In this document: positions 39,794-62,318 of the stretch, piece after piece
Position numbering within the stretch: the stretch's first letter is position 1
Layout of the letters: the number at the start of each line of letters is the position of its first letter
From: a virus
IMG/VR virus record: IMGVR_UViG_3300005080_000005
DNA length: 64,000 bases
Direction: 5' to 3' (one strand)
The notes under the pieces: model-generated
What the model was told of the DNA's origin: nothing
The model's input: only the letters and a program-made list of their open reading frames with translations
The model's database searches: none
Made by a program: the position numbers and the translations under genes

Positions 39794-40753
39794 TTACTCT
39801 CTTACGTTTGTCAGTATTGTACTTTTCTTCTCTTTTGTCAACAGATTTTTACGTCCACGATAATGTTTCCCACAATCCTCACAAATATATTGTTGGAATT
39901 TTGATACATCAGTTGTTGCAAAACCATGTTCTTTCAGTCTTGCAGATCCACAAATACATTTAATTTTTAACGAATCAGAGTACAAGTTCGGGTTTGGAAG
40001 TTTATCATACCAAGGAACAAGGGCAAAGTAAAGTTCTTCAAGACTTAAGATATCGAACTTATTATATGTTTCCATTTCCTCCCAAGCTTCAACATTCCCT
40101 TTCATGCACTCAGACCAAAGTTCAAACCCAGCAAACTTGTTATGTTTTTGTTTTTTATATTTTGTACATAGTTTATCTGTCATATACTCAAGTTTGTTAC
40201 TTGTAAATCCGAAACAACGTTTTGCGATTTCTAATGTATCAATGTGACGTACAGGAGAGAATGGCTTCATCTTATTTAGTACCATACGAGCTCGAATTTT
40301 GGGGATATCGAATTTGCGACCATTTTGATGCACAACCCAATCTGCTTGGTCAAGAAGCTCCCATAGCTTTTTAAGCATCTCTGAATCATCCTCTGGACTC
40401 TTATTGTTTCGGGAATCCATGTAAATAATATCATCTTCGGAAGATCCCAGCCATTTTGCAGCAAAGGACATTAAATACCAATCTGTGTTTATTTGGTTCA
40501 ATCCTACATTCTGTTTCCACAGTCGCCACACATACCCGAGGATAGGTGCTGTCTCTATGTCTAATACCAATACTTTTGGTCCGTCTTTAACATCATCATT
40601 AATAATATTATTCTGTTCAAGCCAAGCAGAATAATACTGGTTCACTGTTGACTTGCCAATATTCAGTTGTTTTGCAATTTGACGGGAACCGACACCTTGT
40701 TGCTTTAGTGATACAATTTTATCTATGATTTCGTTGTAATATTTAAAATTCAT
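39794..40753 (-). CDS. DnaQ-like DEDDh 3'-5' exonuclease with N-terminal HTH
   Basis: Exo I VLDIETAP, Exo II HNGRKFDIP, Exo III YMTDKL; N-terminal GVGSRQIAKQLNIGKSTV helix-turn-helix. Confidence 0.6.
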   Translation of the reverse strand: MNFKYYNEIIDKIVSLKQQGVGSRQIAKQLNIGKSTVNQYYSAWLEQNNIINDDVKDGPKVLVLDIETAPILGYVWRLWKQNVGLNQINTDWYLMSFAAKWLGSSEDDIIYMDSRNNKSPEDDSEMLKKLWELLDQADWVVHQNGRKFDIPKIRARMVLNKMKPFSPVRHIDTLEIAKRCFGFTSNKLEYMTDKLCTKYKKQKHNKFAGFELWSECMKGNVEAWEEMETYNKFDILSLEELYFALVPWYDKLPNPNLYSDSLKIKCICGSARLKEHGFATTDVSKFQQYICEDCGKHYRGRKNLLTKEKKSTILTNVRE

Positions 40754-44749: not shown

Positions 44750-45921
44750 TATTTATTCTCCTTCTTCGTTAACGTTCTGCTGTAATCAACACCAAACTTA
44801 TCAAATAACATTTTAATTGTCAATGGATCATTTAATGTTCGTTTCATATAAACACACTGCCACTGCAACTCTAACCATTCAAGTGTACTCAGGTTTTGTT
44901 CATTTCCTTTCCAGTCCACATACTGTGTTCCTTCAGGAAACCACATAACATAAGTATCTACTACACATTGTAGCAATTCTTTTGGATCTTCGCAAGACAT
45001 TAACAATTTAAAAAACTTAGTCTCACCCATCTGTTGCTCTTTCGGTAATCTTGGAAGGTGTTTATGTGGTGCATAGGTGTCACTTGTATCCCCTGCCAAG
45101 AGTTGATAACAGTAGTTAATAAAACCAAGATACTTACCTTTCCCCTTATTAAATTCACCAACCCCAACAGATTTAGAACTGTCTGGAATTAACCAAGGAA
45201 ATTCTTGCTTAAATTGTCCATCTTCTCTTGACCAATCAAACAACAATGATGGTGTAGCTCGTGCATCCTTGTCGTTACTTCCAACAATATAACTAAACTT
45301 ACCAGATTTCAAATAATCAAGATAACCTTTGAACCCATAAATTTCAAGTTTATCGTCAGACTCCAGCCCTTCTGTAATCTCAACATTGTAGTTATCAATC
45401 AAGTATTGCCTTACTTGTTTTAATCTGGTAGGTGTCAAATCACGATTTCTGTCCGATTTGTATTGAATTGGGAGAGGTAAGTCTAACCTAAAATTTTCCT
45501 TGCCCCCAAGCAACAATATTGTCCGTTCTACCGGAACCTTGAGTTTTTCACAGATCATGGAAATATGATTATCGATAGCATTGGTTGCAATGTCAATCTT
45601 CATTTTTTCACGAATCTTTGGTGTTACTTCAAAATCTTCCAATAAAAACGGTTGTTGCCCTTTTGCAATACGAGAGACATTCAAAGAGCCTAACCAAGAG
45701 TCGTCTGATACAGCTTTAGTTCTGCCTTTAAATTCTGTGATGTTTTTGAACTCTTTAACATTACCAGAAGATTTATGAAGCACTTCGATATACATCTCAT
45801 CAATAATACTTGCTGGCATATAACATATACCATCTGCGTCTATCACTAATTTTGTATCTTGTGTGATATAATCTTCGATATTTTTAATTTGGAATTCTGG
45901 AAACAATATTCCTCCTAACAA
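44749..45921 (-). CDS. 5'-3' exonuclease / flap endonuclease (T4 RNase H-like, PIN fold)
   Basis: LVIDADGICY near N-terminus and EGLESDDKLEIYG acidic cluster, as in FEN/RNase H family metal sites. Confidence 0.45.
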   Translation of the reverse strand: MLGGILFPEFQIKNIEDYITQDTKLVIDADGICYMPASIIDEMYIEVLHKSSGNVKEFKNITEFKGRTKAVSDDSWLGSLNVSRIAKGQQPFLLEDFEVTPKIREKMKIDIATNAIDNHISMICEKLKVPVERTILLLGGKENFRLDLPLPIQYKSDRNRDLTPTRLKQVRQYLIDNYNVEITEGLESDDKLEIYGFKGYLDYLKSGKFSYIVGSNDKDARATPSLLFDWSREDGQFKQEFPWLIPDSSKSVGVGEFNKGKGKYLGFINYCYQLLAGDTSDTYAPHKHLPRLPKEQQMGETKFFKLLMSCEDPKELLQCVVDTYVMWFPEGTQYVDWKGNEQNLSTLEWLELQWQCVYMKRTLNDPLTIKMLFDKFGVDYSRTLTKKENK

Positions 45922-45961
45922 ATAGGGTCACACTACGTGACCACCTTATATTATTTAAAAT

Positions 45962-46258
45962 TTATTCACTACGGCCCATAAGAATATCCAGCTCATTAAT
46001 TTTCTCAACTTTTTCCTCAAGAGACTTGCGTTCCTTCTCTGCCTTGTATCGCTTATCGAATTCCAGTTTTGCATAGAATTTTAACATAGTTGGTTTGTAT
46101 TGGTGAATTTCTTTTTCTGAATCAACAATATCTTTGAGTGCTTCTTTTAGATCTTGCAGTTGTAGCATTACTTCAACCATTTCTTCAATGGTTTTGCTCA
46201 GACGCTTACGCTCTTGTTGATCTTGCGGGAGTTCATTCTTCAGTTCAACTTTAGCCAT
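45962..46258 (-). CDS. coiled-coil protein
   Basis: ORF, heptad-rich. Confidence 0.45.
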   Translation of the reverse strand: MAKVELKNELPQDQQERKRLSKTIEEMVEVMLQLQDLKEALKDIVDSEKEIHQYKPTMLKFYAKLEFDKRYKAEKERKSLEEKVEKINELDILMGRSE

Positions 46259-46285
46259 ATTTTATTTCTCCTTTATATTTTAATA

Positions 46286-46666
46286 TTAATAAAATTCTTT
46301 ATAGTATTTTACGTATGGGATTGTTTCATGACTCGGATTAAACAGTTTATCTCCAAATTCATCATACAAATTCTTAATTTCACGCCAAATAACTTCTTGG
46401 AAACCGGATTCGACTAGGACAGACTCATTCTCATCTTCTGGTTTATTAGAGTCGTCATAAAAACTAAGAAGCTTACTAAAGCCAGAAGTTCGATAACACC
46501 AATCCATATAGTTATCTTGTACTGCTGGATCCTTTCCTTTAATCAACATTGCAATTCCATGGCCTACGTGTTTCATACTACATTCGTCTTGATCCCCAAT
46601 ATCGTATAGAACATTGGTCAACACTTTAATTCGTTCTTGTGCTTTCTTTAACTTCTTCTTACTCAA
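46286..46666 (-). CDS. hypothetical protein
   Basis: ORF. Confidence 0.45.
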   Translation of the reverse strand: MSKKKLKKAQERIKVLTNVLYDIGDQDECSMKHVGHGIAMLIKGKDPAVQDNYMDWCYRTSGFSKLLSFYDDSNKPEDENESVLVESGFQEVIWREIKNLYDEFGDKLFNPSHETIPYVKYYKEFY

Positions 46667-46669
46667 AAC

Positions 46670-46990
46670 TTATTTCTCCTCTTTTAGAATATTTTTAACT
46701 TCTTCTTTAACTGTGATAGTTTCATTAATATTACGTTCTTTTGGTTTACTTAGACTATCTTTCAATTCAACTTCTTTTTGTTCAAAAGTCACACCTTGCA
46801 TTCTTGGTGCTTTCCCTTTTGGGAGGTAAGATGGCTGAATCAACATATAAATCATCATAGCCACAACCATAATAACACCAGTATTAATTACTGTCAATTT
46901 GTTTTTAGTTTTATTATATCGCCACATCCCTGCGGCGAGTACAGACAACAACAAAACTGGAAGCAAAATATTAAGAATAATAACCATCAA
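46670..46990 (-). CDS. 2-TM membrane protein, putative partner of SPFH lipoprotein (NfeD/YqiJ-like position)
   Basis: Two hydrophobic segments then charged tail; 9 nt downstream of SPFH gene. Confidence 0.5.
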   Translation of the reverse strand: MMVIILNILLPVLLLSVLAAGMWRYNKTKNKLTVINTGVIMVVAMMIYMLIQPSYLPKGKAPRMQGVTFEQKEVELKDSLSKPKERNINETITVKEEVKNILKEEK

Positions 46991-46998
46991 TGTTTTCC

Positions 46999-47868
46999 TT
47001 ATTTATTATTCAAAGTAACCATTGGGATTGCGTTACCCATTGAAGTTGTAGGAAGCTGACCATTCCATTTTTGGATCCATTCACGTTCATTCTCAAGGCG
47101 ACGAAGTTCAAGCACTTTATCATCAACAACTTCTTTTTGAACTTTCTGTGCAGCAGCTTCACCTTGAGCTTTTTCAAAATCAATTTGACGTTGCAGACGA
47201 GCTTCTTGCAGTTCACGTTCAAGTTTCACTTTAGAAATTTGAAGCTGTGCTTCTTCTTGTTGAATCTGTTCACGGCGTTGTGCTGCATTCTCCTGTGCAT
47301 CAGTAATAATCTTAGGATACTGAACTCGTGTCACACCGACATATCGTACATCAAATGGAGTACGTGATGCAATAGCTTTACTCAAAATATTACGAAGGTC
47401 ATTGTTTACCTTTTCCATACTACTTGCGATCTGTCCAATGGAATAATTAGAAAGATATTCACGTACCTCAGCTTGGACGATTTGTTGCGCATATGTTGCA
47501 TAAACTTTTTCCCAAGGAATCAGTGTCTTATCTCCAGTCTCTACAGGAGAGATAGTTCCAAATAGTGCTGCTGTTTTAGTTGGATTCAGACTAAGCGTAG
47601 TTCGTACATCTACTGCCAGTTCAAGTTTATCAGTTGGAATAAAGATTGACAGACTTTCAACTGTGGAACGATCTGATGTATCGAGTAGAACAAGTTTATC
47701 ACAATAAGACCAGCATGGTGCAAGACGGAACTTAGAGGTTCCAATCTCTTCTGGTTGATAACCATCTTTTGTCATGATCTTACCTACATGGGCAGGCGGG
47801 ACTTCAACCATTTGACCACAACCGGAAAGCATTGCAACCAGAGCAGCAATACCAATAATTTTCTTCAT
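46999..47868 (-). CDS. SPFH/band-7 (stomatin/prohibitin-like) domain lipoprotein
   Basis: Signal peptide + lipobox LSGC; SPFH-like core; C-terminal Ala/Gln/Glu coiled coil (AQRREQIQQEEAQLQ...AQGEAAAQ). Confidence 0.6.
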   Translation of the reverse strand: MKKIIGIAALVAMLSGCGQMVEVPPAHVGKIMTKDGYQPEEIGTSKFRLAPCWSYCDKLVLLDTSDRSTVESLSIFIPTDKLELAVDVRTTLSLNPTKTAALFGTISPVETGDKTLIPWEKVYATYAQQIVQAEVREYLSNYSIGQIASSMEKVNNDLRNILSKAIASRTPFDVRYVGVTRVQYPKIITDAQENAAQRREQIQQEEAQLQISKVKLERELQEARLQRQIDFEKAQGEAAAQKVQKEVVDDKVLELRRLENEREWIQKWNGQLPTTSMGNAIPMVTLNNK

Positions 47869-47914
47869 ATTTTCTCCTTTTGTTTATTTGATAAATTATA
47901 CTAATTGTTTTAAC

Positions 47915-48184
47915 TTACTGGGTCTTTAGATCTTTAATAACTTCAAGTGAACCATGATCTTTAAATGTCTCATCTTTTACAAATTTAAAACACTCGTATA
48001 CATCTACAATTGAAGCATTATCGTCTGTAAAATTCAACATATCTTTTACTGTCTTTTCCATCAGAGGGTAATGTTTAATTCCTTTAAAAGAAACATAACC
48101 CAACATTTCATGAAGAAGATTAATTTCAGCTTGTGACATCTTGACAACATAATCACCATCTTTGTTGATTTTCTTAAGTTTCAT
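47915..48184 (-). CDS. hypothetical protein
   Basis: ORF. Confidence 0.45.
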   Translation of the reverse strand: MKLKKINKDGDYVVKMSQAEINLLHEMLGYVSFKGIKHYPLMEKTVKDMLNFTDDNASIVDVYECFKFVKDETFKDHGSLEVIKDLKTQ

Positions 48185-48187
48185 TAT

Positions 48188-48400
48188 TTATTCTCCTTCT
48201 ATTGTTTTGGTTTTACTATTAATGAAGTTCAAGATTTTATTCTTAACTTTTACCTTATTGCTTGCCTCAATATTACCACATTCTCTAGAATTCATCAACT
48301 CATTTTCTTCACTGACTTGAGAAATAATATTATTGTACATCATAAACTCTTCAAATGTCTGTGCTTTCTGAAGTAGATTATAAATTATTCCTAGATCCAT
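48188..48400 (-). CDS. hypothetical protein
   Basis: ORF. Confidence 0.4.
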   Translation of the reverse strand: MDLGIIYNLLQKAQTFEEFMMYNNIISQVSEENELMNSRECGNIEASNKVKVKNKILNFINSKTKTIEGE

Positions 48401-48414
48401 AAATTAATTCTCCT

Positions 48415-49194
48415 TTAACTTAGCCAACAACTTGCAAAGTCTGGCTCACTGAAGGTTGCAGTGGGTTTGACATACTTCGGTGCTTTAAATTCTTTGATTG
48501 AACCATTTTTCTGTTTCTCACCTTTAGCCCAGAAGATAATCCGATCTTCCCCAACAGACTCATCATAACGAAGTTCATGGTAAACGTCAACATAACGCCC
48601 TTGTTTTTCGATCTCAACAATCTGATGTTCAATCAATTCACGAAGTTTAACTTTTTCGTTACACTTAACACTTACATTTGACCACCAATTGCTCTCCCCA
48701 AACTCTGTTACAGTTGGGAACTTAGACCAATTCGATTCAAGAACCTCGTTGACAGCTTTCAGATGGTTAATATCAAGTTGGTAGAAAACACTTTCCATTA
48801 CTTCCAATACTGAATCATAATTATTCTTTGAAAGGTAGCCGTTGTATGCCCATTCGATCTCATAGTGAATTGGGTCTGGATTATCACTGATCCAAATCAG
48901 ATTCTCTGGATTATCACCTTCACGTAGGAAGAATTCATAACCAACAATCACCAACCCATCAACAATAGCATCAAGGAACTCTACTTTATCCCCATTTTCA
49001 ATAGCGGTAAACAATTCACCAACTTCCTCAATACGAAGCTTATAATAAGTATCTTGAAGTTCAGGACTATTTTCTAGTCCAAGGAAGTTATTTGTAGCAC
49101 GGACACCTTGATAGAGTTTTATTAGTGCTTTCTTAACTTCATTATCTTTCTTGACAAGGCTATTCAGAAATTCTGTTTTATTTTGAAAGTTCAT
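48415..49194 (-). CDS. MazG-like nucleoside triphosphate pyrophosphohydrolase (dUTPase/dCTPase-type, all-alpha)
   Basis: EEVGELFTAIENGDKVEFLDAIVDGL resembles MazG EExGEL..A......ExxDxL metal-binding helix. Confidence 0.45.
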   Translation of the reverse strand: MNFQNKTEFLNSLVKKDNEVKKALIKLYQGVRATNNFLGLENSPELQDTYYKLRIEEVGELFTAIENGDKVEFLDAIVDGLVIVGYEFFLREGDNPENLIWISDNPDPIHYEIEWAYNGYLSKNNYDSVLEVMESVFYQLDINHLKAVNEVLESNWSKFPTVTEFGESNWWSNVSVKCNEKVKLRELIEHQIVEIEKQGRYVDVYHELRYDESVGEDRIIFWAKGEKQKNGSIKEFKAPKYVKPTATFSEPDFASCWLS

Positions 49195-49205
49195 TTGTTC
49201 TCCTT

Positions 49206-50300
49206 TTAATCTTGTGGATTCCAGTTTTCATCAAGTTCACGAACAGCAATACCAACAGGAAATTGCGGTACACCATCAACTGTCAACGTTTGATAGGTAA
49301 ATGTAACATGTTTTCCAATAAGTTTCAACTGCTCTTCGTAAAGACGTTCTTCATGCGAACCTTTCATTTTGCAACGGAATTCTGTACCATTCTTCATTCG
49401 ACACAAAAGTACACCTTCTTCATTTTTATCAATTTCTACATCATAAACAAATGCTTCATCACTCTCGAATACTTTCCATTTCAGAAGATCATTACTTCGT
49501 TGTCCAAACTCGTATTTCCCAACAAGATTTCTGATAATCAACCCTTCGTAGCCTTGTTCCATGTACTTATTAATGGATACCTTGGCTTGTTGTTCATCAT
49601 AGCAAACTTCTGTAAGTACTGTATGAATACTAAGTGTAGGATAACCAGCTAACTTTGTCAAATCTTTTACTCGTTCTTCCCAAACTTTATCCGAAGGGAT
49701 ATCATAGATTCTATATTCAAGTTTAGCACTATCTGGTTGTACTTTCTTGACAAGACTTACAATTTTCTGCAAAGGCATTCCATGAACATACAACTCACCA
49801 TCAAAACTATCAAATCCAGTCTTATCTCTCAGATACTTTAGTTGTTCTGCAAGGTGTTTGTGAGAAGGATAAACTTTAGCTCCACGACTATTAAAAATAG
49901 GTTCGCCATCTTCATCAAAAGTAACTAGCATTCTATTCCCGTCTAGCTTGGGTTGAATGTGACAAGGGTACTTAACAAAGTGTGGCTTTTTGCTTGCGTC
50001 AGCCGCCAACATAACAGATTTTTTATTTGCATTAAATTCAACATCTTCTACACGTTCAACATAACCTTTACGAATCTGGTCACGATACTTAGACTCAGCT
50101 TCAAGCACGGCTTGTTGTTCTGGTGTCGTTTCATTAGACCTACCTACATTCTTAGACTCGCATACAGTTTTCTTAGTCTGTAGTTTTCCACCCCACTTTC
50201 CATACTTTACAGCAACAATATTACCATCAACATATACAGACCATTCTTGGATTGATTTATCTTTGTTAGGTGCATAGATTGTGTTATAAATTTGTTTCAT
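49206..50300 (-). CDS. lig: ATP-dependent DNA ligase
   Basis: Adenylation motif I KLDGNR; 364 aa T7/T4-type ligase size. Confidence 0.75.
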   Translation of the reverse strand: MKQIYNTIYAPNKDKSIQEWSVYVDGNIVAVKYGKWGGKLQTKKTVCESKNVGRSNETTPEQQAVLEAESKYRDQIRKGYVERVEDVEFNANKKSVMLAADASKKPHFVKYPCHIQPKLDGNRMLVTFDEDGEPIFNSRGAKVYPSHKHLAEQLKYLRDKTGFDSFDGELYVHGMPLQKIVSLVKKVQPDSAKLEYRIYDIPSDKVWEERVKDLTKLAGYPTLSIHTVLTEVCYDEQQAKVSINKYMEQGYEGLIIRNLVGKYEFGQRSNDLLKWKVFESDEAFVYDVEIDKNEEGVLLCRMKNGTEFRCKMKGSHEERLYEEQLKLIGKHVTFTYQTLTVDGVPQFPVGIAVRELDENWNPQD

Positions 50301-50524
50301 TCTTTCTCCTTATCTTCTTTAACATGTACAACTATTTTAGTTTTGATTGCTTTAATAATAGTAATGATTGGATACCAGACAGGCCATGTCAATACTGACC
50401 ACTTAATAACAAAGAATGCAAAATAAAACATAGCTGGGATAAATAGCGGTGCGTAGAGCCACCACTGACTAAACACCCAGATATCAAATAAATATAGTTG
50501 TTCCAAAACATTTATAATTTCCAT
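50297..50524 (-). CDS. small membrane protein
   Basis: Two hydrophobic helices. Confidence 0.45.
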   Translation of the reverse strand: MEIINVLEQLYLFDIWVFSQWWLYAPLFIPAMFYFAFFVIKWSVLTWPVWYPIITIIKAIKTKIVVHVKEDKEKE

Positions 50525-50538
50525 AATTTCTCCTTAAA

Positions 50539-50769
50539 TCAATAAATACTAGGACAACGCTTACCTTTGCTAATCGAAGTAGATTTTGTCTCACCTCTAA
50601 CATTGCGGTACAAACAGGTCTTATATTTCCCTGAAACCGACTCAGAAACAAGTTTATATCGTGAGTATGCCTTGCTCTCAGTAGCGCTGACACTAGGCAC
50701 AAATGTAGCGATAACAATAATGATACCAATAAATACCAACATTGTCAACCATTTGATTTTGCTTTTCAT
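50539..50769 (-). CDS. small exported/membrane protein
   Basis: N-terminal signal/TM MKSKIKWLTMLVFIGIIIVIATFVPSVSA. Confidence 0.45.
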   Translation of the reverse strand: MKSKIKWLTMLVFIGIIIVIATFVPSVSATESKAYSRYKLVSESVSGKYKTCLYRNVRGETKSTSISKGKRCPSIY

Positions 50770-50809
50770 AATTACCTCTTAGATAAGTTTGATACTTTTA
50801 TAAAGGCGT

Positions 50810-51151
50810 TCAGCTTGTTTCTGTCGTGTTTCCTCTGGAACATTGTGAATCGACGATCACTGTGAAAACAGTATATCCGTATTTTTCAGCAAGGTCAAGG
50901 TAAGGTTTCATTTCCCACTCTGTTGTGAATGTATTAGAAACAACAATATCATAACCAAACTTCATTTGTCTTTCTGTCTCAGATTGACACCAACCATGAG
51001 CCTGTTTTAATTTAGAAGGTTCAAACAAATATTTACCGTCTCTCATGAAGTACATATCTGCTTCAAGATTGCAAAACCGTCCAAAACATTCTTGGACAAA
51101 TGTTGACTTTCCTGCACCGCTCACACCTCTGACCAGAATACACGTTTTCAT
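50810..51151 (-). CDS. polynucleotide 5'-kinase (P-loop; T4 Pnk kinase-domain-like), apparent 3' frameshift
   Basis: GVSGAGKST Walker A; C-terminus truncated. An alternative frame from ~50855 reads SIHNVPEETRQKQAERLYKSIKLI, ending at TAA 50779 next to the following gene start. Confidence 0.55.
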   Translation of the reverse strand: MKTCILVRGVSGAGKSTFVQECFGRFCNLEADMYFMRDGKYLFEPSKLKQAHGWCQSETERQMKFGYDIVVSNTFTTEWEMKPYLDLAEKYGYTVFTVIVDSQCSRGNTTETS

Positions 51152-52053
51152 TCCTGTTCTCCAAAATATTTTTCAATAAAAGCCCTACGTTGTTGATCAT
51201 TATAAGACTTCCATTGGTCTTTGTCAACAGTTTTTACAATAAAATCTGTAATCCCGTAAAATTCTTCATCAATTCGTTGTTTAAATTTCTCAGGATTATC
51301 AAACATATCATCAACTTTAGCTTGTCCAAGTCGCATAATTGCCTTCTTAGATAGGTAATGATTTGATTTCAATTTACACAGTGTTTTACCAGTTTCATGA
51401 TCAATAATCATAAAACCTTCATGTTTGCAAGATTTAGATTCTTCTAAAATATCTGAGAATTTTCCTACTGTCAATCTTGGGCGATAAAACCCATCAGCAT
51501 CTGCAATAACATTTAGTGTGTACTCTGACATCATTTTACCAGAGCTGTGTTTTCTTACTCCGATTAGATACGCCCCGAACTCTTCTTCTATAATGTGCGG
51601 ATCATCTGGATGACAGATCTCAAACAAATACGTCCTTCCTTCTTCAAATTGCTCATCTTTAAACATTTGGTTTTCAATAACTTCTTTTGCCATTTTAGCA
51701 AATTTAGAATCCAATGAGCCAGTTGTTGAATAAATTGGCTCTCCTTTATAAACAGAAACAGCACACATAAAACCATTAATTTTACGTGGTGCAATTACAA
51801 TCTTATCTCGTGAGACTTTTGTATTATTTTCATAAAGATTAAAAACTTTTGTAAAAGGCCAAACAATAATGTTATCTTCAGAATCAACTACCATACCACG
51901 ACAATCCAACAGTCGTTTGTCTCTATTCCATAGATTGTTATAAAAGACTTTCTTAGAATATTTAAGAATAGAAAGTCCTGCAAACTCTCCTGAAGTATAG
52001 GTCTTTTTCTTTACAAGACCTTGTTCTACCAAATCTTCGACATTAAATTTCAT
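51148..52053 (-). CDS. RNA ligase (Rnl-family ATP-dependent polynucleotide ligase)
   Basis: Motif I KINGFM (KxNG), motif IV EGFMII, motif V CKLK; ATGA overlap with kinase gene. Confidence 0.6.
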   Translation of the reverse strand: MKFNVEDLVEQGLVKKKTYTSGEFAGLSILKYSKKVFYNNLWNRDKRLLDCRGMVVDSEDNIIVWPFTKVFNLYENNTKVSRDKIVIAPRKINGFMCAVSVYKGEPIYSTTGSLDSKFAKMAKEVIENQMFKDEQFEEGRTYLFEICHPDDPHIIEEEFGAYLIGVRKHSSGKMMSEYTLNVIADADGFYRPRLTVGKFSDILEESKSCKHEGFMIIDHETGKTLCKLKSNHYLSKKAIMRLGQAKVDDMFDNPEKFKQRIDEEFYGITDFIVKTVDKDQWKSYNDQQRRAFIEKYFGEQE

Positions 52054-52055
52054 AG

Positions 52056-52643
52056 TTATAACCTCTTTGTTTCTTGATTGTTCAATTTTTCTATTTTGAG
52101 TTTTTCATACACCCTATTTAACCCTCTGACCACATCAGGATCCTTTTCGTTTTTGATATATTCGTTTAATAATTTCATTTTCTCATTTCTCCATGCACAG
52201 TGTGCTTCGTACATGGTTCTAAAACTACCAAGATATACATTATTACTATTAACCGATACTGTTGCTACAAAATTATTACCATCATTTTGCCTTGTTACGC
52301 CCAATGGGCATTCTCCCCGATAATTATGCTTTGTTGTAATAAACTTATTAAGTGCACTGCTTATAAAAACGCAAGTATCTGGTCCATATATTAGATTATT
52401 TTCTATTAATAAATCTTTATCTAACTGTTTTCCTACCCAATCTTTAGTGTCCATCCACTTTTTAAAATTTGAAAAACTTAACCATTCTTCGCACACCGTG
52501 TGATTTTCATAGTTTTTACTTTTGTGATAGTTTGTATTATAGCATCTGGAGATCATACTTCTCCATACTAAATATTCAGGTATATGTTTTCCTTTTATTT
52601 TAACAGGATATTCGTAATCATTTATCCCTACTCCGTAAATCAT
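52056..52643 (-). CDS. homing endonuclease, NUMOD4/HNH-type, paralog 3
   Basis: YGVGINDYEY...WRSMISRCY...VCEEWLSFSNFKKW...LDKDLL; inserted between RNA ligase and phosphatase genes. Confidence 0.6.
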   Translation of the reverse strand: MIYGVGINDYEYPVKIKGKHIPEYLVWRSMISRCYNTNYHKSKNYENHTVCEEWLSFSNFKKWMDTKDWVGKQLDKDLLIENNLIYGPDTCVFISSALNKFITTKHNYRGECPLGVTRQNDGNNFVATVSVNSNNVYLGSFRTMYEAHCAWRNEKMKLLNEYIKNEKDPDVVRGLNRVYEKLKIEKLNNQETKRL

Positions 52644-52652
52644 AATCCCTCT

Positions 52653-53210
52653 TTATTTGTGTCTATCGATAATATCTTTTCTGTTTGCTATATCAATAAG
52701 TTCAGGCAATGATAATATCTTTCCGTTGTTGTCCCAACCAACATCCCAACCTCTGCCTTCAACTTGATAACTCCCATGAACATGGCCGTGGGCATGGATC
52801 GCTCCGTAATTTTGTCTATTCCATCTAACTATAGGATAGTGACTCATACATATTTTTATATTATCAAAACTTACTTCGAAATAATGGTGATACTCTATAT
52901 TCATCTGATTAAAAACACGATAGTCATGATTTCCTGCAATCCAAACAACATCACCATTGAGTTTAGAAAGAATCTCTTGTGTCTTTTCTTTTGCAACGAA
53001 ACTAAAGTCCCCAAGATGGAAGACAATATCGTCCTGAGATACTTTACTATTCCAGTGTGAAATCAAAGATTCATGCATCTCTTCTAGTGATTTCCATGGA
53101 CGAGTTTCAGAACAAAAATCCATGATACGTTTGTGATAGAAATGTAAATCTGATGTTACGAAATATTTCCTATTGTCTGTGCTTTTTAGTTTTTGTCCAA
53201 ATTTAATCAC
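52653..53210 (-). CDS. calcineurin-like metallophosphoesterase
   Basis: DLHFYH, HLGDFSF, GNHDY, HAHGHVHG metal-ligand motifs. Confidence 0.6.
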   Translation of the reverse strand: MIKFGQKLKSTDNRKYFVTSDLHFYHKRIMDFCSETRPWKSLEEMHESLISHWNSKVSQDDIVFHLGDFSFVAKEKTQEILSKLNGDVVWIAGNHDYRVFNQMNIEYHHYFEVSFDNIKICMSHYPIVRWNRQNYGAIHAHGHVHGSYQVEGRGWDVGWDNNGKILSLPELIDIANRKDIIDRHK

Positions 53211-53569
53211 GTTTTCTTACCTCCTTTCTTCTTTCCTTCATAAAGTCCTGTGACACGACTCTCAATAGCATTCAACAGCATAACCTTATCACCTTCGGAA
53301 AGTGCTGTCAAATAATCCTTTTTCAATTGGCAATACACTGAACACTCGTCCTGTGAAGGCCAGTCCACTTCCTTATCTTCACAGGAAGAATCAAATGCAT
53401 CTAGCCATGCTTTAATATCTTCAATTGGATAACTGAAAACAAAAGCTGTTGTGTCAAACTTAGGCTTAGGTTGTGCAGATTTTGATGTTGTACTTTTAGT
53501 TGCTGTCTTTTTCTGAGTTACTTTCTTTTCCACTAATTTTCTCCTTTTCTTGTTCTGACATAACTTCAA
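53207..53569 (-). CDS. lysine-rich hypothetical protein
   Basis: ORF; start uncertain (overlaps next ORF). Confidence 0.4.
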   Translation of the reverse strand: MKLCQNKKRRKLVEKKVTQKKTATKSTTSKSAQPKPKFDTTAFVFSYPIEDIKAWLDAFDSSCEDKEVDWPSQDECSVYCQLKKDYLTALSEGDKVMLLNAIESRVTGLYEGKKKGGKKT

Positions 53570-53774
53570 AAATTAATTTTAAAGGTAGTGCTTTTAGAAG
53601 TTGTTTCATGTGAGGCAATAATGCACCTTCTTCCTGCCCTACCCAACGATCTCCACCGAGAGACAAGATCCCTGCCTCAAATATTGAGGTATTTGCCAAA
53701 TTAGTAGCGGCACTATTAATTTCCAATAGTTGTTTTGCAGAAAACAGTTGTTTTGGTTTATCTTTAAAAGTCAT
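53496..53774 (-). CDS. hypothetical protein
   Basis: Internal ATG 53774 after AAAGAAGGAATTAAAT SD. Confidence 0.4.
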   Translation of the reverse strand: MTFKDKPKQLFSAKQLLEINSAATNLANTSIFEAGILSLGGDRWVGQEEGALLPHMKQLLKALPLKLIFEVMSEQEKEKISGKESNSEKDSN

Positions 53775-54021
53775 ATTTAATTCCTTCTTTATCAAGCTGT
53801 TCTTTAAGTTCTGAAACTGTCAAAGCATTTCCTTTGCAATGTTCAGGCAATTGTACAACAATAGATTCTCGTGAAGCTTCCCATGCGAACCAAGCTAGGT
53901 TTGTCCTGTGACACATGCACTGCTGATCTTCGGGTTTTGTCATAGCATAATTAGTCCTATATGTATCAAAATCGGTTGTTGATCGCAACCACTTTTCAAA
54001 ATCTTCTCGTGCTTTATCCAT
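53764..54021 (-). CDS. hypothetical protein
   Basis: Internal ATG 54021 after TTAAGGAGAAACAA SD (ORF track start 54132 would overlap upstream gene by 100 nt). Confidence 0.45.
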   Translation of the reverse strand: MDKAREDFEKWLRSTTDFDTYRTNYAMTKPEDQQCMCHRTNLAWFAWEASRESIVVQLPEHCKGNALTVSELKEQLDKEGIKYDF

Positions 54022-54031
54022 TTGTTTCTCC

Positions 54032-54310
54032 TTAATCTTTACTCGGAATCCAAGTATAATCTTTCCCTTCACTGGAGTCAAACAGTTTGTCATCCAAAAC
54101 ATCAAAAGCTTGTTCAAGACCGATTCTTGCAAGCTCTACATATCTTAGCACAACAGCCAGTTCTTCACAAGGGTGTTGTCTATGAAAGTCATAAATATAA
54201 CGATATACATCTTGCAACTCGCTTGCCTGTGATAGCAGCATATCCCGAGTAAAAATCATGTCCTCATTAACGCTGAACTCTTCGAAATTTTCATCAAAAT
54301 TATCTGACAT
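54032..54310 (-). CDS. acidic hypothetical protein (first gene of minus-strand block)
   Basis: ORF after AAAGGAGAATCTT SD. Confidence 0.45.
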   Translation of the reverse strand: MSDNFDENFEEFSVNEDMIFTRDMLLSQASELQDVYRYIYDFHRQHPCEELAVVLRYVELARIGLEQAFDVLDDKLFDSSEGKDYTWIPSKD

Positions 54311-54343
54311 AAGATTCTCCTTTAGTTTGTCTTAAGTTTTATT

Positions 54344-54372
54344 AGTGTATCACGTAAGAAAAGTATGTCAAC
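54344..54372 (-). promoter_or_regulatory. sigma70-like promoter for minus-strand block
   Basis: On the minus strand TTGACA - 17 nt - TACACT, ~35 nt upstream of ATG 54310. Confidence 0.45.
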
Positions 54373-54415
54373 AGTTAACATACGAAAAATCTTTCAAAAG
54401 TTTTTCATTGTTCTC

Positions 54416-54444
54416 TTGACACCACGAGAGTTGTGTATTACTAT
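54416..54444 (+). promoter_or_regulatory. sigma70-like promoter for right plus-strand block
   Basis: TTGACA - 17 nt - TACTAT, 33 nt upstream of GAAGGAGACATAAGTGAATG. Confidence 0.55.
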
Positions 54445-54476
54445 ACTCACATCTAGTTAGAAAGAAGGAGACATAA

Positions 54477-54932
54477 GTGAATGTAATAATCTATAAGGTA
54501 TCACTCAAGGGTGTCTGGGATAATAAAATTAACGATAGCTTTCGCAACCTGTTGAAACTTAACGGATTTATTCTCAAATCAGATGAGGATAACTTTGGAT
54601 ATGAATGGAATGATTACGGAGGATATCCAGAAGGCCATGACTTTAGTAGTTGGTATAAAGATGACCAATACAAACAGTTTACGTATGCTGATTATCCAGC
54701 TTGGATTCCAGAAAACAAGAAAGAGACGCAACTACTAATTCTTCCCGAGGATTTTGCGAGTCTAATGTTCATGTTGGAGTTACAGGAAGATAAAATCAAG
54801 TTTGACTCTATTTCCAAGAGTACTATTATTGTTGATCATCCAATTGAAAAGATGATGAAAGACTTATCACAGATGTTGACTAATGGAATCAACAATGGTA
54901 TTTTAAAACAACTAACGAACCAAGATAAATAA
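54477..54932 (+). CDS. hypothetical protein
   Basis: ORF 151 aa. Confidence 0.5.
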   Translation: MNVIIYKVSLKGVWDNKINDSFRNLLKLNGFILKSDEDNFGYEWNDYGGYPEGHDFSSWYKDDQYKQFTYADYPAWIPENKKETQLLILPEDFASLMFMLELQEDKIKFDSISKSTIIVDHPIEKMMKDLSQMLTNGINNGILKQLTNQDK

Positions 54933-54944
54933 GGAGAAACAACA

Positions 54945-55100
54945 GTGTATCAATATCTTAAATCTAAGTTTAAATGGAATCCAGTAACAATTCGAATTGT
55001 ATGGGTCATGTTGCTTGCATTTTCATTTGTGTTCTGGTATTATTCTTTCAAACTGTTTGATTTCATTATTAAATCTGTAGCAGCTTTTATTTTTATTTAA
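54945..55100 (+). CDS. small membrane protein (GTG start, 51 aa)
   Basis: GTG 8 nt after TAAGGAGAAAC; hydrophobic IVWVMLLAFSFVFWYY. Confidence 0.35.
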   Translation: MYQYLKSKFKWNPVTIRIVWVMLLAFSFVFWYYSFKLFDFIIKSVAAFIFI

Positions 55101-55115
55101 CAAAGGAGGATAAGA

Positions 55116-55361
55116 ATGTCTAAAATTATACTATCCCGCATCAACGATTACACCCATACTGAGGTATTTGATACTTCTGTGGCGTGGGGTAGGATCTTTA
55201 CTCTCATTTTTGACGATGTTGTCAATCTCTACGATGAAGATCTTACAAATCTTGTTTACGATATGCTCTCAGATCCAACAACCTCGGCAAAAGAAGATGT
55301 GATTGAATTGATGAAAGATGAGCATATTGGTTCTATGTTTATTTTGGAGTACAATAAGTAA
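55116..55361 (+). CDS. hypothetical protein
   Basis: ORF after AAAGGAGGATAAGA SD. Confidence 0.5.
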   Translation: MSKIILSRINDYTHTEVFDTSVAWGRIFTLIFDDVVNLYDEDLTNLVYDMLSDPTTSAKEDVIELMKDEHIGSMFILEYNK

Positions 55362-55543
55362 TGAAAACAAGTAGGAACCTTGAGCAGCTACTTGAACACT
55401 CACTCTCTTGTTTCTGTTACAAGGCTGATAAGATTGTTGTTCATGATCTAAATATCAAACAAGATAAAGCTATATTGTCTCTTGAAGTGTGGTATAAAGA
55501 TAAAGGACAACAGAAGATTAAATTTAAAAATCTTATTCTGTAA
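55361..55543 (+). CDS. hypothetical protein
   Basis: ORF, TAATG overlap. Confidence 0.45.
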   Translation: MKTSRNLEQLLEHSLSCFCYKADKIVVHDLNIKQDKAILSLEVWYKDKGQQKIKFKNLIL

Positions 55544-55614
55544 AAACATAGTTTGTTAACACATTGAAAATTTTATAAAAATATGTTAATATAAGTTTGT
55601 CAAGTAACTATTAA

Positions 55615-55650
55615 CCCTATTTTGCTCTTGTGGCAGAATGGGGTTTTATC
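55615..55650 (+). terminator. rho-independent terminator
   Basis: CCCTATTTTGC tcttgtg GCAGAATGGGG (11 bp incl. 2 G-U) + TTTTATC. Confidence 0.65.
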
Positions 55651-55951
55651 AGTTAGTGCGTAAAACCATGCTCTTTAGGGCATGGATGCAAGCATTAATA
55701 GTCTAACCAATCAAAAGGATCTGTTGGGAACTCATATGGATCAGGTTGGATTATAGAGCCAAATAAGGAAATACTGTTAGAAATAGAATCATTAGAGGCA
55801 GCGCAAAACATAAGTGCTAGATTAGAATTGTATAACGGATTGTTAGATTTACCATTATAATAAAATACTTGTACAATAAAGTTCTTGAATAATTAAAAAT
55901 TTTATGATAAAGTTAAATCATATACTAATTTATTAACAAGAACTATTAATT

Positions 55952-56296
55952 ATGGAACAACAAAACAACAAACCGTCTGGTAAGGAAAACCTCAGCAAGG
56001 AAGCTGTTCTTTTATCTCACGAAGAAGTAGAATATTTCAAGGCTGTCCCAACAAACCTTCATGTCGTATACTCCAAGATATGTAACAGTGTTTTGATTGA
56101 AAAAACGGATACTGTTTTCACAAATGAAGATGAAGCAACCACTTTTTCTGAAACATTAGCAACAACTGTTAGTGGTCTTCCCTTGAGTTTCTGGGAATAT
56201 TCGTTCAATGATATCGCTGTCAAGTATGCTATTAATGATTTAGAAAAAGTGGGATTGGTACATCGCATTACTATTTATCCTAAAAATAATTCTTGA
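55952..56296 (+). CDS. hypothetical protein
   Basis: ORF 114 aa. Confidence 0.5.
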   Translation: MEQQNNKPSGKENLSKEAVLLSHEEVEYFKAVPTNLHVVYSKICNSVLIEKTDTVFTNEDEATTFSETLATTVSGLPLSFWEYSFNDIAVKYAINDLEKVGLVHRITIYPKNNS

Positions 56297-56629
56297 CAAG
56301 TTTAATTTTAAATGTTAATATTATTTATAGATTATAAAATAAGTTTAGGCTCACAGAGCCGCAAGTGATGTACAATGATCATGAGTCCTCCTTCTCTAGT
56401 TGTACATCCACCCTATCCTCTCCTTGCTCTTTGTCCACGCAATGTGGTTTGATTTTATATTAGGTAGCATCAAAGATGCCGAGACATTAATGTCTCAATG
56501 TATTATGTAGCGCAGGCAACAGGGACTCCGTTGCGGTGGTTGCCAATATTTACGCAGCGACGAGTGAGACCTACATGATATACAATCTATTTCTATTTTC
56601 TCTCATAATCTCCTCTCTTTAATCATACT

Positions 56630-56665
56630 GGGCCACATCTTCGGGTGTTGGCCCTTTTCTTTTAT
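56630..56665 (+). terminator. rho-independent terminator with UUCG tetraloop
   Basis: GGGCCACATC ttcg GGTGTTGGCCC + TTTTCTTTTATC. Confidence 0.65.
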
Positions 56666-56677
56666 CTAAAATTTTTC

Positions 56678-56706
56678 TTGACACACATGACAATCTATCT
56701 TACAAT
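56678..56706 (+). promoter_or_regulatory. near-consensus sigma70 promoter
   Basis: TTGACA - 17 nt - TACAAT. Confidence 0.6.
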
Positions 56707-56853
56707 ACACAAAGGCTCATAGAATCGTTTCTAAGCAATTTTATAGCATTAGTGCTACGATGGTATTGACAAGCTAACAGAATTGATTTAAAGTGCCATA
56801 GGAGCTGTTTAAACAAGCTTAGATAGTTACACAACTAATAGAGGAGAAACGTA

Positions 56854-57081
56854 ATGGAAACTAAAGATATTTATGAATGTTATTCGCAAGGATTTGTATT
56901 CTCAGACAGAGAACTAAAAATGGCAATCAAGCACTACAAAAACCTCTCCAATATCCTGATGGCTAGTGGTAGAGAGTTCAAATTTGCAGCAGATGCTGCG
57001 TTTAGTGTTTACCAGAACCTCTATCAATACGGTATTGCACGAGAACTTTTTACATATGAAACAAAGGAGTATAAACTGTGA
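56854..57081 (+). CDS. hypothetical protein
   Basis: ORF after AGAGGAGAAACGTA SD. Confidence 0.5.
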   Translation: METKDIYECYSQGFVFSDRELKMAIKHYKNLSNILMASGREFKFAADAAFSVYQNLYQYGIARELFTYETKEYKL

Positions 57082-57338
57082 AACTTCAAATTAAAACAAA
57101 ATTTGAAAAGAGTAGCAAAATTACTAAACTTGCAACATTATCAACAGAAACAAGATGGGGTGCAAAAGTTACCAGATACAGTTATCTTGAAGATGTTACT
57201 TGGACTGTCTATGCTGGGCAATTAGTAATGAAATCAGGAAAATCTTTCCTGTTTAAAGACGCTTTACATGAGGCAACTACCATGTTAGAGTCATGTATGA
57301 ACGACCCATTGTTTAAATATTTAGGAGAAAACAAATGA
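57078..57338 (+). CDS. hypothetical protein
   Basis: ORF overlapping previous stop. Confidence 0.5.
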   Translation: MKLQIKTKFEKSSKITKLATLSTETRWGAKVTRYSYLEDVTWTVYAGQLVMKSGKSFLFKDALHEATTMLESCMNDPLFKYLGENK

Positions 57339-57544
57339 ATAACCTCAACAATTTTGAACTACACGAAGAAGCAATGAACCTATCTGTTGTACAAACTTCA
57401 TATAAACTTGCAAAAATGTACTTGCAAGAAAAACAGGAACTAGAAGAACTGAAAGAAAAGTATGAAAACTTGAATCAGATATTTGAAGATTACCTTGCTG
57501 CCCATAAAGTTATCCAAGCCGAGTTGGAGAGACTTCAATTGTAA
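57335..57544 (+). CDS. coiled-coil hypothetical protein
   Basis: ORF. Confidence 0.5.
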   Translation: MNNLNNFELHEEAMNLSVVQTSYKLAKMYLQEKQELEELKEKYENLNQIFEDYLAAHKVIQAELERLQL

Positions 57545-57767
57545 CATAGTATTGATACGACCAAATCTCAACCTGAATTGGGGTGTTAACTGAGATTAAA
57601 CATTATCAGACTCTGAATATCAATTTTAAAGGCTACCAGAAGCTCCCTACTGGATAGTTTGAGAATAGGAGTATGTTGGTAGCCTGAACTACCGAGAATT
57701 GATTATAGAGCTTTCTATGAATGTTTTAAGGTTTGATAGGTTATTTGAGATATTTAAATAAAATCTA

Positions 57768-57796
57768 TTGACTTTTTATTTATTACATTATATACT
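57768..57796 (+). promoter_or_regulatory. sigma70-like promoter
   Basis: TTGACT - 17 nt - TATACT, 31 nt upstream of TAGGAGACTAAAATG. Confidence 0.55.
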
Positions 57797-57827
57797 TAAT
57801 ACGTAACATAGTAAATAGGAGACTAAA

Positions 57828-58094
57828 ATGGAAATGTACAAAGAAAATGACATGAGCCTTGGTGAATTTATTCGTGAGGTCTATATGTCGGAAGAAGGTG
57901 GTAAAATGACTATGCAACAAATTGCAGATGCTTGTGGTGTAACTCAGGCTACGATTAGTCGTCTTATCAACAACAAATCTGACTTGACTATTGAGATGGC
58001 ATTCAAGCTTGAAAAAGGTCTTGGCCGTAGTGCTCAGTCTTGGATGAACTTGTGGGTTAACTATAAAATTTGGGAGTACAAACACAAAAGTTGA
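57828..58094 (+). CDS. XRE/HigA-like helix-turn-helix DNA-binding protein
   Basis: MTMQQIADACGVTQATISRLINNKSDLTIEMAFKLEKGLGRSAQSWMNLWVNY follows HigA antitoxin-type HTH consensus. Confidence 0.6.
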   Translation: MEMYKENDMSLGEFIREVYMSEEGGKMTMQQIADACGVTQATISRLINNKSDLTIEMAFKLEKGLGRSAQSWMNLWVNYKIWEYKHKS

Positions 58095-62054: not shown

Positions 62055-62137
62055 GTTGGATTCCGTTAGTGGCGATACGACTGGTTTTGTAATCCAGCAG
62101 GGAAACCTCATCGTGAGTTCGAGTCTCACATCCAACA
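62055..62137 (+). tRNA. tRNA-like gene, type II (long variable arm), non-canonical anticodon arm (anticodon UGU if 7-nt loop)
   Basis: Acceptor GTTGGAT/ATCCAAC, D-stem CGT/ACG with GG loop, T-arm GTGAG-TTCGAGT-CTCAC, 15-nt variable arm with AGG/CCT hairpin; anticodon stem only 4 bp with a U-U closing pair; no encoded CCA. Confidence 0.4.
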
Positions 62138-62159
62138 CTAAGTATTTTAAAGATTTACA

Positions 62160-62234
62160 GGGCCTATGGCAGTCTGCGAATGCAGCCAGCTCATAACTGG
62201 TTCAAGGATGGTTGGATTCCATCTAGGCCCACCA
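62160..62234 (+). tRNA. tRNA-Met (CAU)
   Basis: Acceptor GGGCCTA/TAGGCCC, anticodon arm GCCAG-CTCATAA-CTGGT, T-arm GATGG-TTGGATT-CCATC, discriminator A + encoded CCA. Confidence 0.7.
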
Positions 62235-62243
62235 AATTAACTT

Positions 62244-62318
62244 GCAGGTATGATGTAATGGATAGCATATCTTTCTTCTAAAAAGATTGTCAGCGTTCAA
62301 ATCGCTGTACCTGTGCCA
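62244..62318 (+). tRNA. tRNA-Arg (UCU)
   Basis: Acceptor GCAGGTA/TACCTGT, D-arm ATGT-AATGGATA-GCAT, anticodon arm TCTTT-CTTCTAA-AAAGA, T-arm CAGCG-TTCAAAT-CGCTG, G + encoded CCA. Confidence 0.8.

Follow-up and report, generated by a model that had tools for sequence, protein, structure and literature searches.

Does the locus at positions 50779-53210 of a 64,000-nucleotide stretch of viral DNA (IMG/VR record IMGVR_UViG_3300005080_000005; the whole stretch is called the window here) encode a set of enzymes that repair cut RNA, and what is the place of the endonuclease-like gene found among them? The repair of nuclease-cut tRNA by phages, a classic form of counter-defence, has been studied in hardly any system but T4. 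A preliminary description of the locus had seen an RNA-repair-like cassette of kinase, RNA ligase and metallophosphatase genes, split by a homing endonuclease gene and directed against tRNA-targeting host systems (PrrC/RloC/retron-type). The source of the window is an Aeromonas phage of the genus Plateaulakevirus, and its nearest isolates are phiA047 (~87% nucleotide identity across the region) and 2L372X. With a probability of roughly two in three, the locus encodes three enzymes that form an RNA heal-and-seal module in a Plateaulakevirus-type phage, with a selfish endonuclease gene between two of its genes. The heal-and-seal reading is well supported because the three genes are tightly linked in all six possible orders and because kinase-ligase fusions occur.

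The region consists of four consecutive open reading frames (ORFs), all on the minus strand, located as in the preliminary description except for the end of the kinase gene. The kinase ATG overlaps the ligase stop codon (ATGA). The features are as follows.

52653..53210, minus strand: metallophosphoesterase (MPE), 185 aa, GTG start; stand-alone, binuclear, of the aq_1665/phrog_547 family
52056..52643, minus strand: endonuclease-like gene, 195 aa, free-standing, putatively of a divergent HNH-AP2 type; located in the MPE-ligase spacer
51148..52053, minus strand: ligase, 301 aa, predicted Rnl1-type ATP-dependent RNA ligase with predicted nucleophile Lys91 in K-I-N-G
50810..51151, minus strand: truncated kinase ORF, 113 aa; P-loop and Asp32 kept, lid motif and C-terminal helix lost
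50779..50849, minus strand: 3'-end remnant of the kinase gene, out of frame, 3' of the deletion junction; ends at the ancestral TAA (50781-50779)
51199..51227, minus strand: sigma-70 consensus TTGACA-17-TATAAT in the 3' end of the ligase ORF; 12/12 match

Linkage of the Three Genes across Phages

Eighty IMG/VR loci with ligase homologues (35-57% identity) were collected, their six-frame ORFs were searched with profiles seeded from the window proteins, and dereplication at 80% identity resulted in 54 ligase-anchored lineages. Within 6 kb of the ligase, an MPE was found in 46/54 lineages, a kinase in 45/54 and both in 40/54; the median gap to the ligase was 94 nt for the MPE and 0 nt for the kinase. 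When the search was anchored on the MPE, the 36 dereplicated lineages included 21 with the ligase, 23 with the kinase, 19 with both and only 5 with a DNA ligase. These figures are lower bounds because many contigs are short. All six orders of the three genes occur among the ligase-anchored lineages. Furthermore, single ORFs of 421-432 aa in at least 6 loci consist of the kinase at the N-terminus followed by the ligase, and phrog_8238, labelled 'RNA ligase', likewise has an N-terminal kinase.

A second kinase subtype, recognizable by the motifs 'STD', 'RL..RPGK.IP' and 'EGF', replaces the main type beside MPE and ligase (L099:7730-8194, L118:6542-7003 and L131:5460-5924). It is only ~18% identical to the main type and closer to T4 Pnk, and from these comparisons it looks like a non-orthologous replacement within the module. 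A linkage that persists when gene order changes, genes fuse or a non-orthologous kinase steps in strongly supports cooperation between the three enzymes.

The Ligase

The ligase matched PF09511 (RNA_lig_T4_1) at 1e-11 with 45.5 bits (curated cut-off 28.3) and phrog_562 at 9e-65. The motifs named in the preliminary description were all found, both those of the ligase (KING, EGFMII and CKLK) and those of the MPE (DLHFYH, GDFSF and GNHDY). An AlphaFold2 (AF2) model generated from a 27-sequence family alignment had a predicted local distance difference test (pLDDT) score of 91.6. When this model was compared with the PDB using Foldseek, the top matches were T4 Rnl1 entries (2c5u, 9do4 and 5tt6; E 3e-12 to 2e-11), and archaeal Rnl3 and the ligase domains of fungal Trl1 came next (RNA ligases overall E 1e-12 to 1e-7), while DNA ligases (African swine fever virus, LigIV and Lig1) were listed only at E values of at least 1e-3. 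The family profile was then aligned by hhalign with the authentic T4 rnlA product taken from GenBank KJ477686, with a probability of 96.6% over 199 columns. Residues R52, K69, K91 (the nucleophile), G94 and E145 of the ligase were in register with R54, K75, K99, G102 and E159 of T4, as were E212/G213 with E227/G228 and K227/K229 with K240/K242. The aligned catalytic residues (motifs I, III, IV and V, plus R52 and K69) are invariant in the 27 family members. Wang et al. 2003 reportedly found the T4 counterparts other than Arg54 and Lys75 to be essential as well. Arg54 and Lys75 are essential in T4 Rnl1 (PMC6379707). Single-sequence and profile hidden Markov model searches of the ligase against PDB sequences returned no relevant match, and the link to T4 was made only through Foldseek and hhalign. 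On its motifs and modelled fold, the protein is predicted to be a T4 Rnl1-type RNA ligase and not a DNA ligase, in agreement with the preliminary description, which had taken it for an Rnl-type enzyme that would not cluster with DNA ligases. The label 'tail fibre attachment' that public annotations give to this ligase was set aside as carried over from T4 gp63.

The profile alignment with T4 RnlA stops at T4 residue 268, and the Foldseek TM-score was 0.57-0.61 overall. After motif V the ligase has a C-terminal module of ~65 helical residues, compared with ~120 aa in T4 Rnl1, and its motif I reads KxNG where that of T4 reads KxDG.

The Kinase and Its 23-nt Deletion

The kinase ORF matched PF13671 (AAA_33) at 1.6e-11 with 45.1 bits (cut-off 27), phrog_2071 at 2e-31 and phrog_505, 'polynucleotide kinase', at 5e-6. 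A single-sequence search of the PDB was marginal (E 0.04) and a family profile of 26 members was needed. Its top match was the kinase domain of C. thermocellum Pnkp (CthPnkp) at full length (E 5e-13), and the next were Capnocytophaga Pnkp1 (5e-10), T4 Pnk (5e-10) and mammalian PNKP (8e-9), which places the predicted enzyme in the polynucleotide-kinase clade. No family member departs from the P-loop GVSGAGKST or from D32 (the Asp of 'EAD'), and D32 aligns with the Asp of CthPnkp 'issD', Asp38, the general base. The ENRHGN lid motif of the family aligns with the lid Arg116 of CthPnkp; the lid arginines of T4 Pnk are Arg122/Arg126. The P-loop polynucleotide kinase of the preliminary description was borne out for the family; the window ORF itself is 113 aa long, frameshifted and without its lid.

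Alignments with phiA047, 2L372X and a third relative, L084, revealed a clean 23-nt deletion in the window kinase with its junction at 50850/50849. It removes 'EKRHGNKDV', the ENRHGN lid motif, and shifts the frame, with loss of the H.VP motif and the C-terminal helix. The lid arginine motif lost in the window ORF is kept in L084 and in all relatives. The kinase end originally given as 50779 had to be corrected, because the ORF stops at 50810 and the ancestral stop at 50781-50779 is now out of frame; as this stop falls exactly on 50779, the coordinate must have been reached by reading through the frameshift.

L084 is the Joint Genome Institute (JGI) contig Ga0068536_1000013, which is the same as window 45128-58053 at every aligned base (12.9 kb) and differs by two indels. 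It keeps the 23-nt segment and consequently an intact 131-aa kinase, and it lacks 43 nt present in the window (48312-48354), a frameshifting difference within a 70-aa ORF (window 48188-48400). At the 43-nt site the window has the usual form, and 15 other public contigs carry the 70-aa ORF intact. A pair of private indels with zero substitutions suggests assembly or minority-variant differences and not divergence. No record of the 113-aa product was found in the public data searched. Exact-match scans of viral and metagenome contigs matched neither the junction nor the intact sequence, although the intact form exists in the JGI contig, and were thus uninformative. Since L084 and the relatives are intact and the 113-aa product is recorded nowhere, the truncation is a private variant or an assembly difference. 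The window copy is a defective allele or assembly variant, the normal state of the lineage being an intact kinase of 131-133 aa, and the kinase step is genetically broken in the window unless the deletion is an artefact.

As judged by eye, the kinase gene is mosaic. Its 5' half (50930-51151) has ~65% nucleotide identity to phiA047/2L372X and its 3' half (50779-50930), together with the downstream gene, has above 90%, which looks like a recombination boundary near the endonuclease insertion.

A module in the process of being lost, with a real deletion, a kinase pseudogene and a ligase and MPE that act without 5' phosphorylation or are no longer needed, is the best surviving alternative, though unlikely. 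The deletion is clean, frameshifting and takes the conserved lid and H.VP motif, no second copy of kinase, ligase or MPE was found in the 64 kb window, and a locus in flux is evident from the inserted endonuclease gene and from the mosaicism in the 5' half of the kinase gene. However, the intact kinase of a contig identical at the aligned bases over 12.9 kb, the 131-133 aa carried by 8/8 close relatives, and the private 43-nt deletion of L084, which makes the indels look like assembly or minority-variant differences, all speak against loss, as do the intact ligase and MPE ORFs.

The Metallophosphoesterase

The MPE matched PF00149 (Metallophos) at 6e-8, PF12850 (Metallophos_2) at 2e-8 and phrog_547 at 1e-49. 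The profile checks proposed in the preliminary description therefore came out as expected for kinase (PF13671) and MPE (PF00149), with PF09511 as the family matched by the ligase. The ligands of the binuclear metal site (D21/H23, D68, N94/H95, H124 and H143/H145) are all invariant in the family, and the AF2 model had a pLDDT of 96.3. The only close structure was Aquifex aq_1665 (PDB 1xm7), with a profile E of 1e-23 and a Foldseek E of 1e-8; the aq_1665 (1xm7)/phrog_547 metallophosphoesterases are the closest relatives of the MPE in both sequence and structure. This match is silent on the substrate because aq_1665 has no known function. Lambda phosphatase matched at E 9e-4 with a TM-score of 0.39. 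By sequence and model the MPE belongs to the right superfamily and lies outside the clade with proven RNA 2',3'-phosphate healing. As sequence and fold give the superfamily and not the healing clade, its role is read from gene context, and it is proposed, from gene linkage only, to be the enzyme that heals 2',3'-cyclic-phosphate and 3'-phosphate ends. The preliminary description had assigned 3'-end healing to this enzyme, which was not established, since aq_1665 is its sole close structural relative and the MPE lies outside the Pnkp/lambda-phosphatase clade. It had also pointed to a separate metallophosphoesterase in place of a HAD domain. The gene is indeed stand-alone, but the arrangement is not new: bacterial Pnkp already has a metallophosphoesterase healer (PMC3675462), and calcineurin-like phosphatases are mentioned for phage RNA repair (PMC7824862).

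The Endonuclease-like Gene

The gene in the MPE-ligase spacer matched phrog_953, 'HNH endonuclease', at 2e-77, and this PHROG family name was the only label to call it HNH. It had been described as a NUMOD4/HNH homing endonuclease inserted between ligase and phosphatase. The insertion stood, but Pfam HNH, HNH_3 and NUMOD4 had no match to the protein even at E<=10, and NUMOD4 and canonical HNH identity were consequently rejected. In an alignment with canonical relatives, the HNH_3-like segment reads 'LDKD...N' in place of 'vDH...N...N'; because a Lys (LDKD) occupies the position of the catalytic His, nuclease activity is uncertain. The C-terminal region is AP2-like, 'GV..F.A.V...YLG.F.T..EA'. 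Homologues occurred in 1520 phage records, among them ICP1 (E 5e-13), the Barba phages of Rheinheimera and Bacillus phages whose proteins are annotated 'AP2 domain'. Free-standing homing endonuclease genes of a divergent HNH-AP2 ('IPA-HNH') class have been described (bioRxiv 10.1101/2023.03.23.533998), and the window gene fits this class in sequence as a putative IPA-HNH-like homing element. As in the IPA-HNH class of ICP1, the HNH-like N-terminal region is so diverged that Pfam HNH_3 does not match it, the C-terminal region is AP2-like, and the gene is free-standing, intergenic, present as several paralogs per genome and patchy among relatives. It differs in the Lys at the catalytic His, in a comparison made with the class as a whole.

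In phiA047 and 2L372X there is no endonuclease gene at the site, and MPE and ligase abut or overlap; because the ligase lies directly beside the MPE in these phages, the endonuclease gene is an insertion. In the window, the spacer is taken up by a 588-nt ORF that has a ribosome-binding site of its own, and homology restarts at the ligase ribosome-binding site. The gene separates the cassette genes and interrupts none, so that the cassette is 'split' in the sense that its MPE-ligase spacer is filled, but not in the sense of an interrupted gene.

Three further paralogs, all on the minus strand, are located in the window at 22524-23510, 37680-38372 and 39227-39790, and the genome is heavily colonised by this HNH-AP2-type element family. 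Two of the endonuclease paralogs adjoin the DNA polymerase exonuclease-subunit gene (39794-40753). Another endonuclease-like ORF, 29690-30550 on the minus strand (phrog_681 'endonuclease', phrog_559 'HNH endonuclease'), sits between the genes for the large (30662-32920) and small (28436-29521) subunits of ribonucleotide reductase. At the same MPE-ligase junction, unrelated members of the endonuclease class were seen in two other loci (L011:5375-6016 and L019:5508-6002). These lineages are distant, their ligases being ~50% identical to that of the window, and homing may have targeted this junction repeatedly.

Genomic Setting of the Cassette

Downstream of the kinase come a pair of small ORFs of membrane type, then the gene for an ATP-dependent DNA ligase (50300-49206) and a MazG-like ORF. 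The cassette is located 1-3.5 kb into a long minus-strand block that begins at the divergent intergenic region 54310-54477. This strand switch has promoter-like sites in both directions (54371-54344, minus; 54416-54444, plus), and the leftward block with the cassette probably starts here. The rest of the block encodes DNA ligase, exonuclease, resolvases, the DNA polymerase exonuclease subunit, thymidylate synthase, dihydrofolate reductase and ribonucleotide reductases; it is an early or middle nucleotide-metabolism block. The setting is comparable in T4, where rnlA adjoins nrdB (GenBank KJ477686).

The perfect sigma-70 site at 51199-51227 is 48 nt upstream of the kinase ATG and may be an internal promoter; the relatives read TTGACA-17-TAcAAT. 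Conservation of the site is no proof of function because it is coding sequence, and a sigma-70 promoter scan showed no enrichment over shuffles (32 vs 24.7 +/- 5.4).

ARAGORN identified three tRNA genes at 62055-62318 (Thr-TGT, Met-CAT and Arg-TCT), confirming that the phage carries its own tRNAs. In the related phages 2L372D (NC_048769) and 4L372D (NC_048771), a tRNA-His guanylyltransferase (Thg1-like) is annotated near the region homologous to window ~53.5-54.4 kb. It is another enzyme of the tRNA-end-repair type in this phage group; in the window none was seen there.

Discussion

The proposed substrate of the module is RNA, most plausibly tRNA whose anticodon loop a host ribonuclease has cut, which would leave termini bearing a 2',3'-cyclic phosphate and a 5'-OH. 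First, the MPE would open or remove the 3'-terminal phosphate, a step suggested by gene linkage only. Second, the Pnk-type kinase would phosphorylate the 5'-OH, as judged from homology to the kinase domains of CthPnkp and T4 Pnk. Third, the Rnl1-type ligase would join 3'-OH to 5'-PO4 through Lys91-AMP, a prediction based on its catalytic residues and fold. We infer the tRNA target and the counter-defence purpose by analogy with known systems.

The closest of these is T4, in which Pnkp works with Rnl1 (PMC3592404) and the pair counters the PrrC anticodon nuclease. The module shares with it an Rnl1-type ligase with catalytic residues in register and the best fold match, a P-loop enzyme of the polynucleotide-kinase clade, the heal-and-seal logic, phage encoding and nucleotide-metabolism neighbours. 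It differs in having separate kinase and phosphatase proteins, with a binuclear MPE where T4 has a HAD (DxDxT) domain, and in the ligase, which here is 301 aa long with the short C-terminal module, KxNG and a Thr for Lys119. Bacterial Pnkp has a calcineurin-type 2',3'-phosphatase (PMC3675462, PMC1920235), and in the C. thermocellum Pnkp-Hen1 system one polypeptide holds the same three chemistries, including a metallophosphoesterase as 3' healer (PMC3675462). The CthPnkp kinase domain is the best full-length match of the kinase family. Unlike bacterial Pnkp, the phage set is spread over three genes (two when kinase and ligase are fused), its ligase is Rnl1-type and not Rnl4, and its MPE falls in the aq_1665 clade and lacks the GDxxDRG arginine; no Hen1 partner was seen adjoining the cassette. 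Fungal and plant Trl1/AtRNL combines an Rnl1-like adenylyltransferase, a P-loop kinase and an enzyme that opens cyclic phosphate (ligase-kinase-cyclic phosphodiesterase, LIG-KIN-CPD). Its ligase domains are among the top fold matches, and kinase-ligase fusions are found in the phage relatives. However, Trl1 heals with a 2H cyclic phosphodiesterase, its ligase needs the 2'-phosphate left by this step, and the order is LIG-KIN in Trl1 and KIN-LIG in the phage fusions. From comparative genomics, phage Rnl1 and Rnl2 have been reported with kinases and phosphoesterases, a few of the latter calcineurin-like (PMC7824862, section 3.4.9). The concept is thus not new, as the general phage scheme had already been stated, and by these analogies the module is most likely a so far uncharacterised representative of an established type of system, with a function that would parallel that of T4 Pnkp and Rnl1.

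Several points weigh against the heal-and-seal reading. The window kinase ORF is truncated to 113 aa while all eight close relatives, L084 included, have 131-133 aa. In T4 Rnl1 the C-terminal domain (about aa 255-374) confers specificity for the tRNA anticodon loop, and this appended domain is the basis on which clades of ligases are defined (PMC6379707); the ligase here appears to lack most of it, and the position of T4 Lys119 is an invariant Thr in the ligase family. The nearest relative of the MPE, aq_1665, is a structural-genomics protein without known function. The MPE has GDFSF where the lambda-phosphatase/Pnkp clade has the phosphate-binding arginine of GDxxDRG, Pnkp phosphatase was absent from its top 50 fold matches, and the nearest NCBIfam match was the sub-threshold PdeM (TIGR04123, 27.6 bits against a cut-off of 150), which NCBIfam describes as a ligase-associated DNA damage response endonuclease. 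The cassette stands within a block of DNA and nucleotide metabolism, two small genes away from an ATP-dependent DNA ligase, and nothing ties it to any particular host nuclease. In the literature searched there was no biochemical work on the trio and no function for aq_1665-type MPEs.

Alternatively, the module might serve the RNA metabolism of the phage itself, for example in the maturation or repair of phage tRNAs or processed transcripts, and not counter-defence. The phage encodes tRNAs, the Thg1-like enzymes of 2L372D and 4L372D lie in the corresponding region, and the same enzyme set makes up the eukaryotic tRNA-splicing ligases represented by Trl1. This explanation is improbable: no intron-containing tRNA or splicing endonuclease was seen, ARAGORN being the sole search, and the one role that has been established physiologically for a phage Rnl1 is to repair damage by host nucleases (PMC6379707, citing Amitsur 1987).

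A still poorer account is that kinase and MPE process DNA ends (3'-phosphate, 5'-OH) for the neighbouring DNA ligase (49206-50300), with the Rnl1-like protein as a bystander or a sealer of DNA/RNA hybrids. T4 Pnkp acts on DNA ends too. A DNA ligase occurs within 6 kb in 18/54 ligase-anchored lineages, and the MPE has its weak match to PdeM. The linkage pattern counts against this account, since the DNA ligase is present in 5/36 MPE-anchored lineages against 21/36 for Rnl1 and 23/36 for the kinase, its median gap is ~2 kb against 0-650 nt for the partners of the triad, and kinase fusions are with the RNA ligase and never with a DNA ligase. Least credible is an MPE that acts as a phosphodiesterase on host immune signalling nucleotides or as a protein phosphatase and is merely co-located with the kinase-ligase pair, because, although lambda Ser/Thr phosphatase, Rv0805 (a cyclic-nucleotide phosphodiesterase) and an MJ0936-type diesterase are among its neighbours in fold, and phage calcineurin-like phosphodiesterases have been proposed to target signalling nucleotides (PMC7824862), those matches are weak (E about 1e-3 to 1e-2) and its median distance of 94 nt from the ligase in 46/54 lineages despite shuffled order is hard to explain without a shared function.

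Within the RNA heal-and-seal reading, a tentative extension can be offered. The ~300-aa ligases might form a separate RNA-ligase clade, with an Rnl1-like adenylyltransferase and a short C-terminal module unrelated to that of T4, which would partner a Pnk-type kinase and an aq_1665-type MPE in a widespread, modular form of phage RNA repair. If so, the aq_1665/phrog_547 family would gain its first function, RNA 3'-end healing, and the substrates could differ from those of T4, as other tRNAs or RNAs cut by newer defence nucleases.

For the window itself, the idea was not new, and the reading frame of the kinase is disrupted. The trio is frequent among Aeromonas, Vibrio, Klebsiella and Escherichia phages whose genomes measure about 100-150 kb, as well as in many metagenomic phages, and in public annotation the three proteins go by no other names than 'ATPase', 'RNA ligase/tail attachment' and 'phosphoesterase' or 'hypothetical'. 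If the proposed function is correct, it would provide a role for aq_1665-type metallophosphoesterases, a compact three-protein RNA repair kit for biochemistry, and a marker of phages that are likely to resist tRNA-cleaving defence systems.

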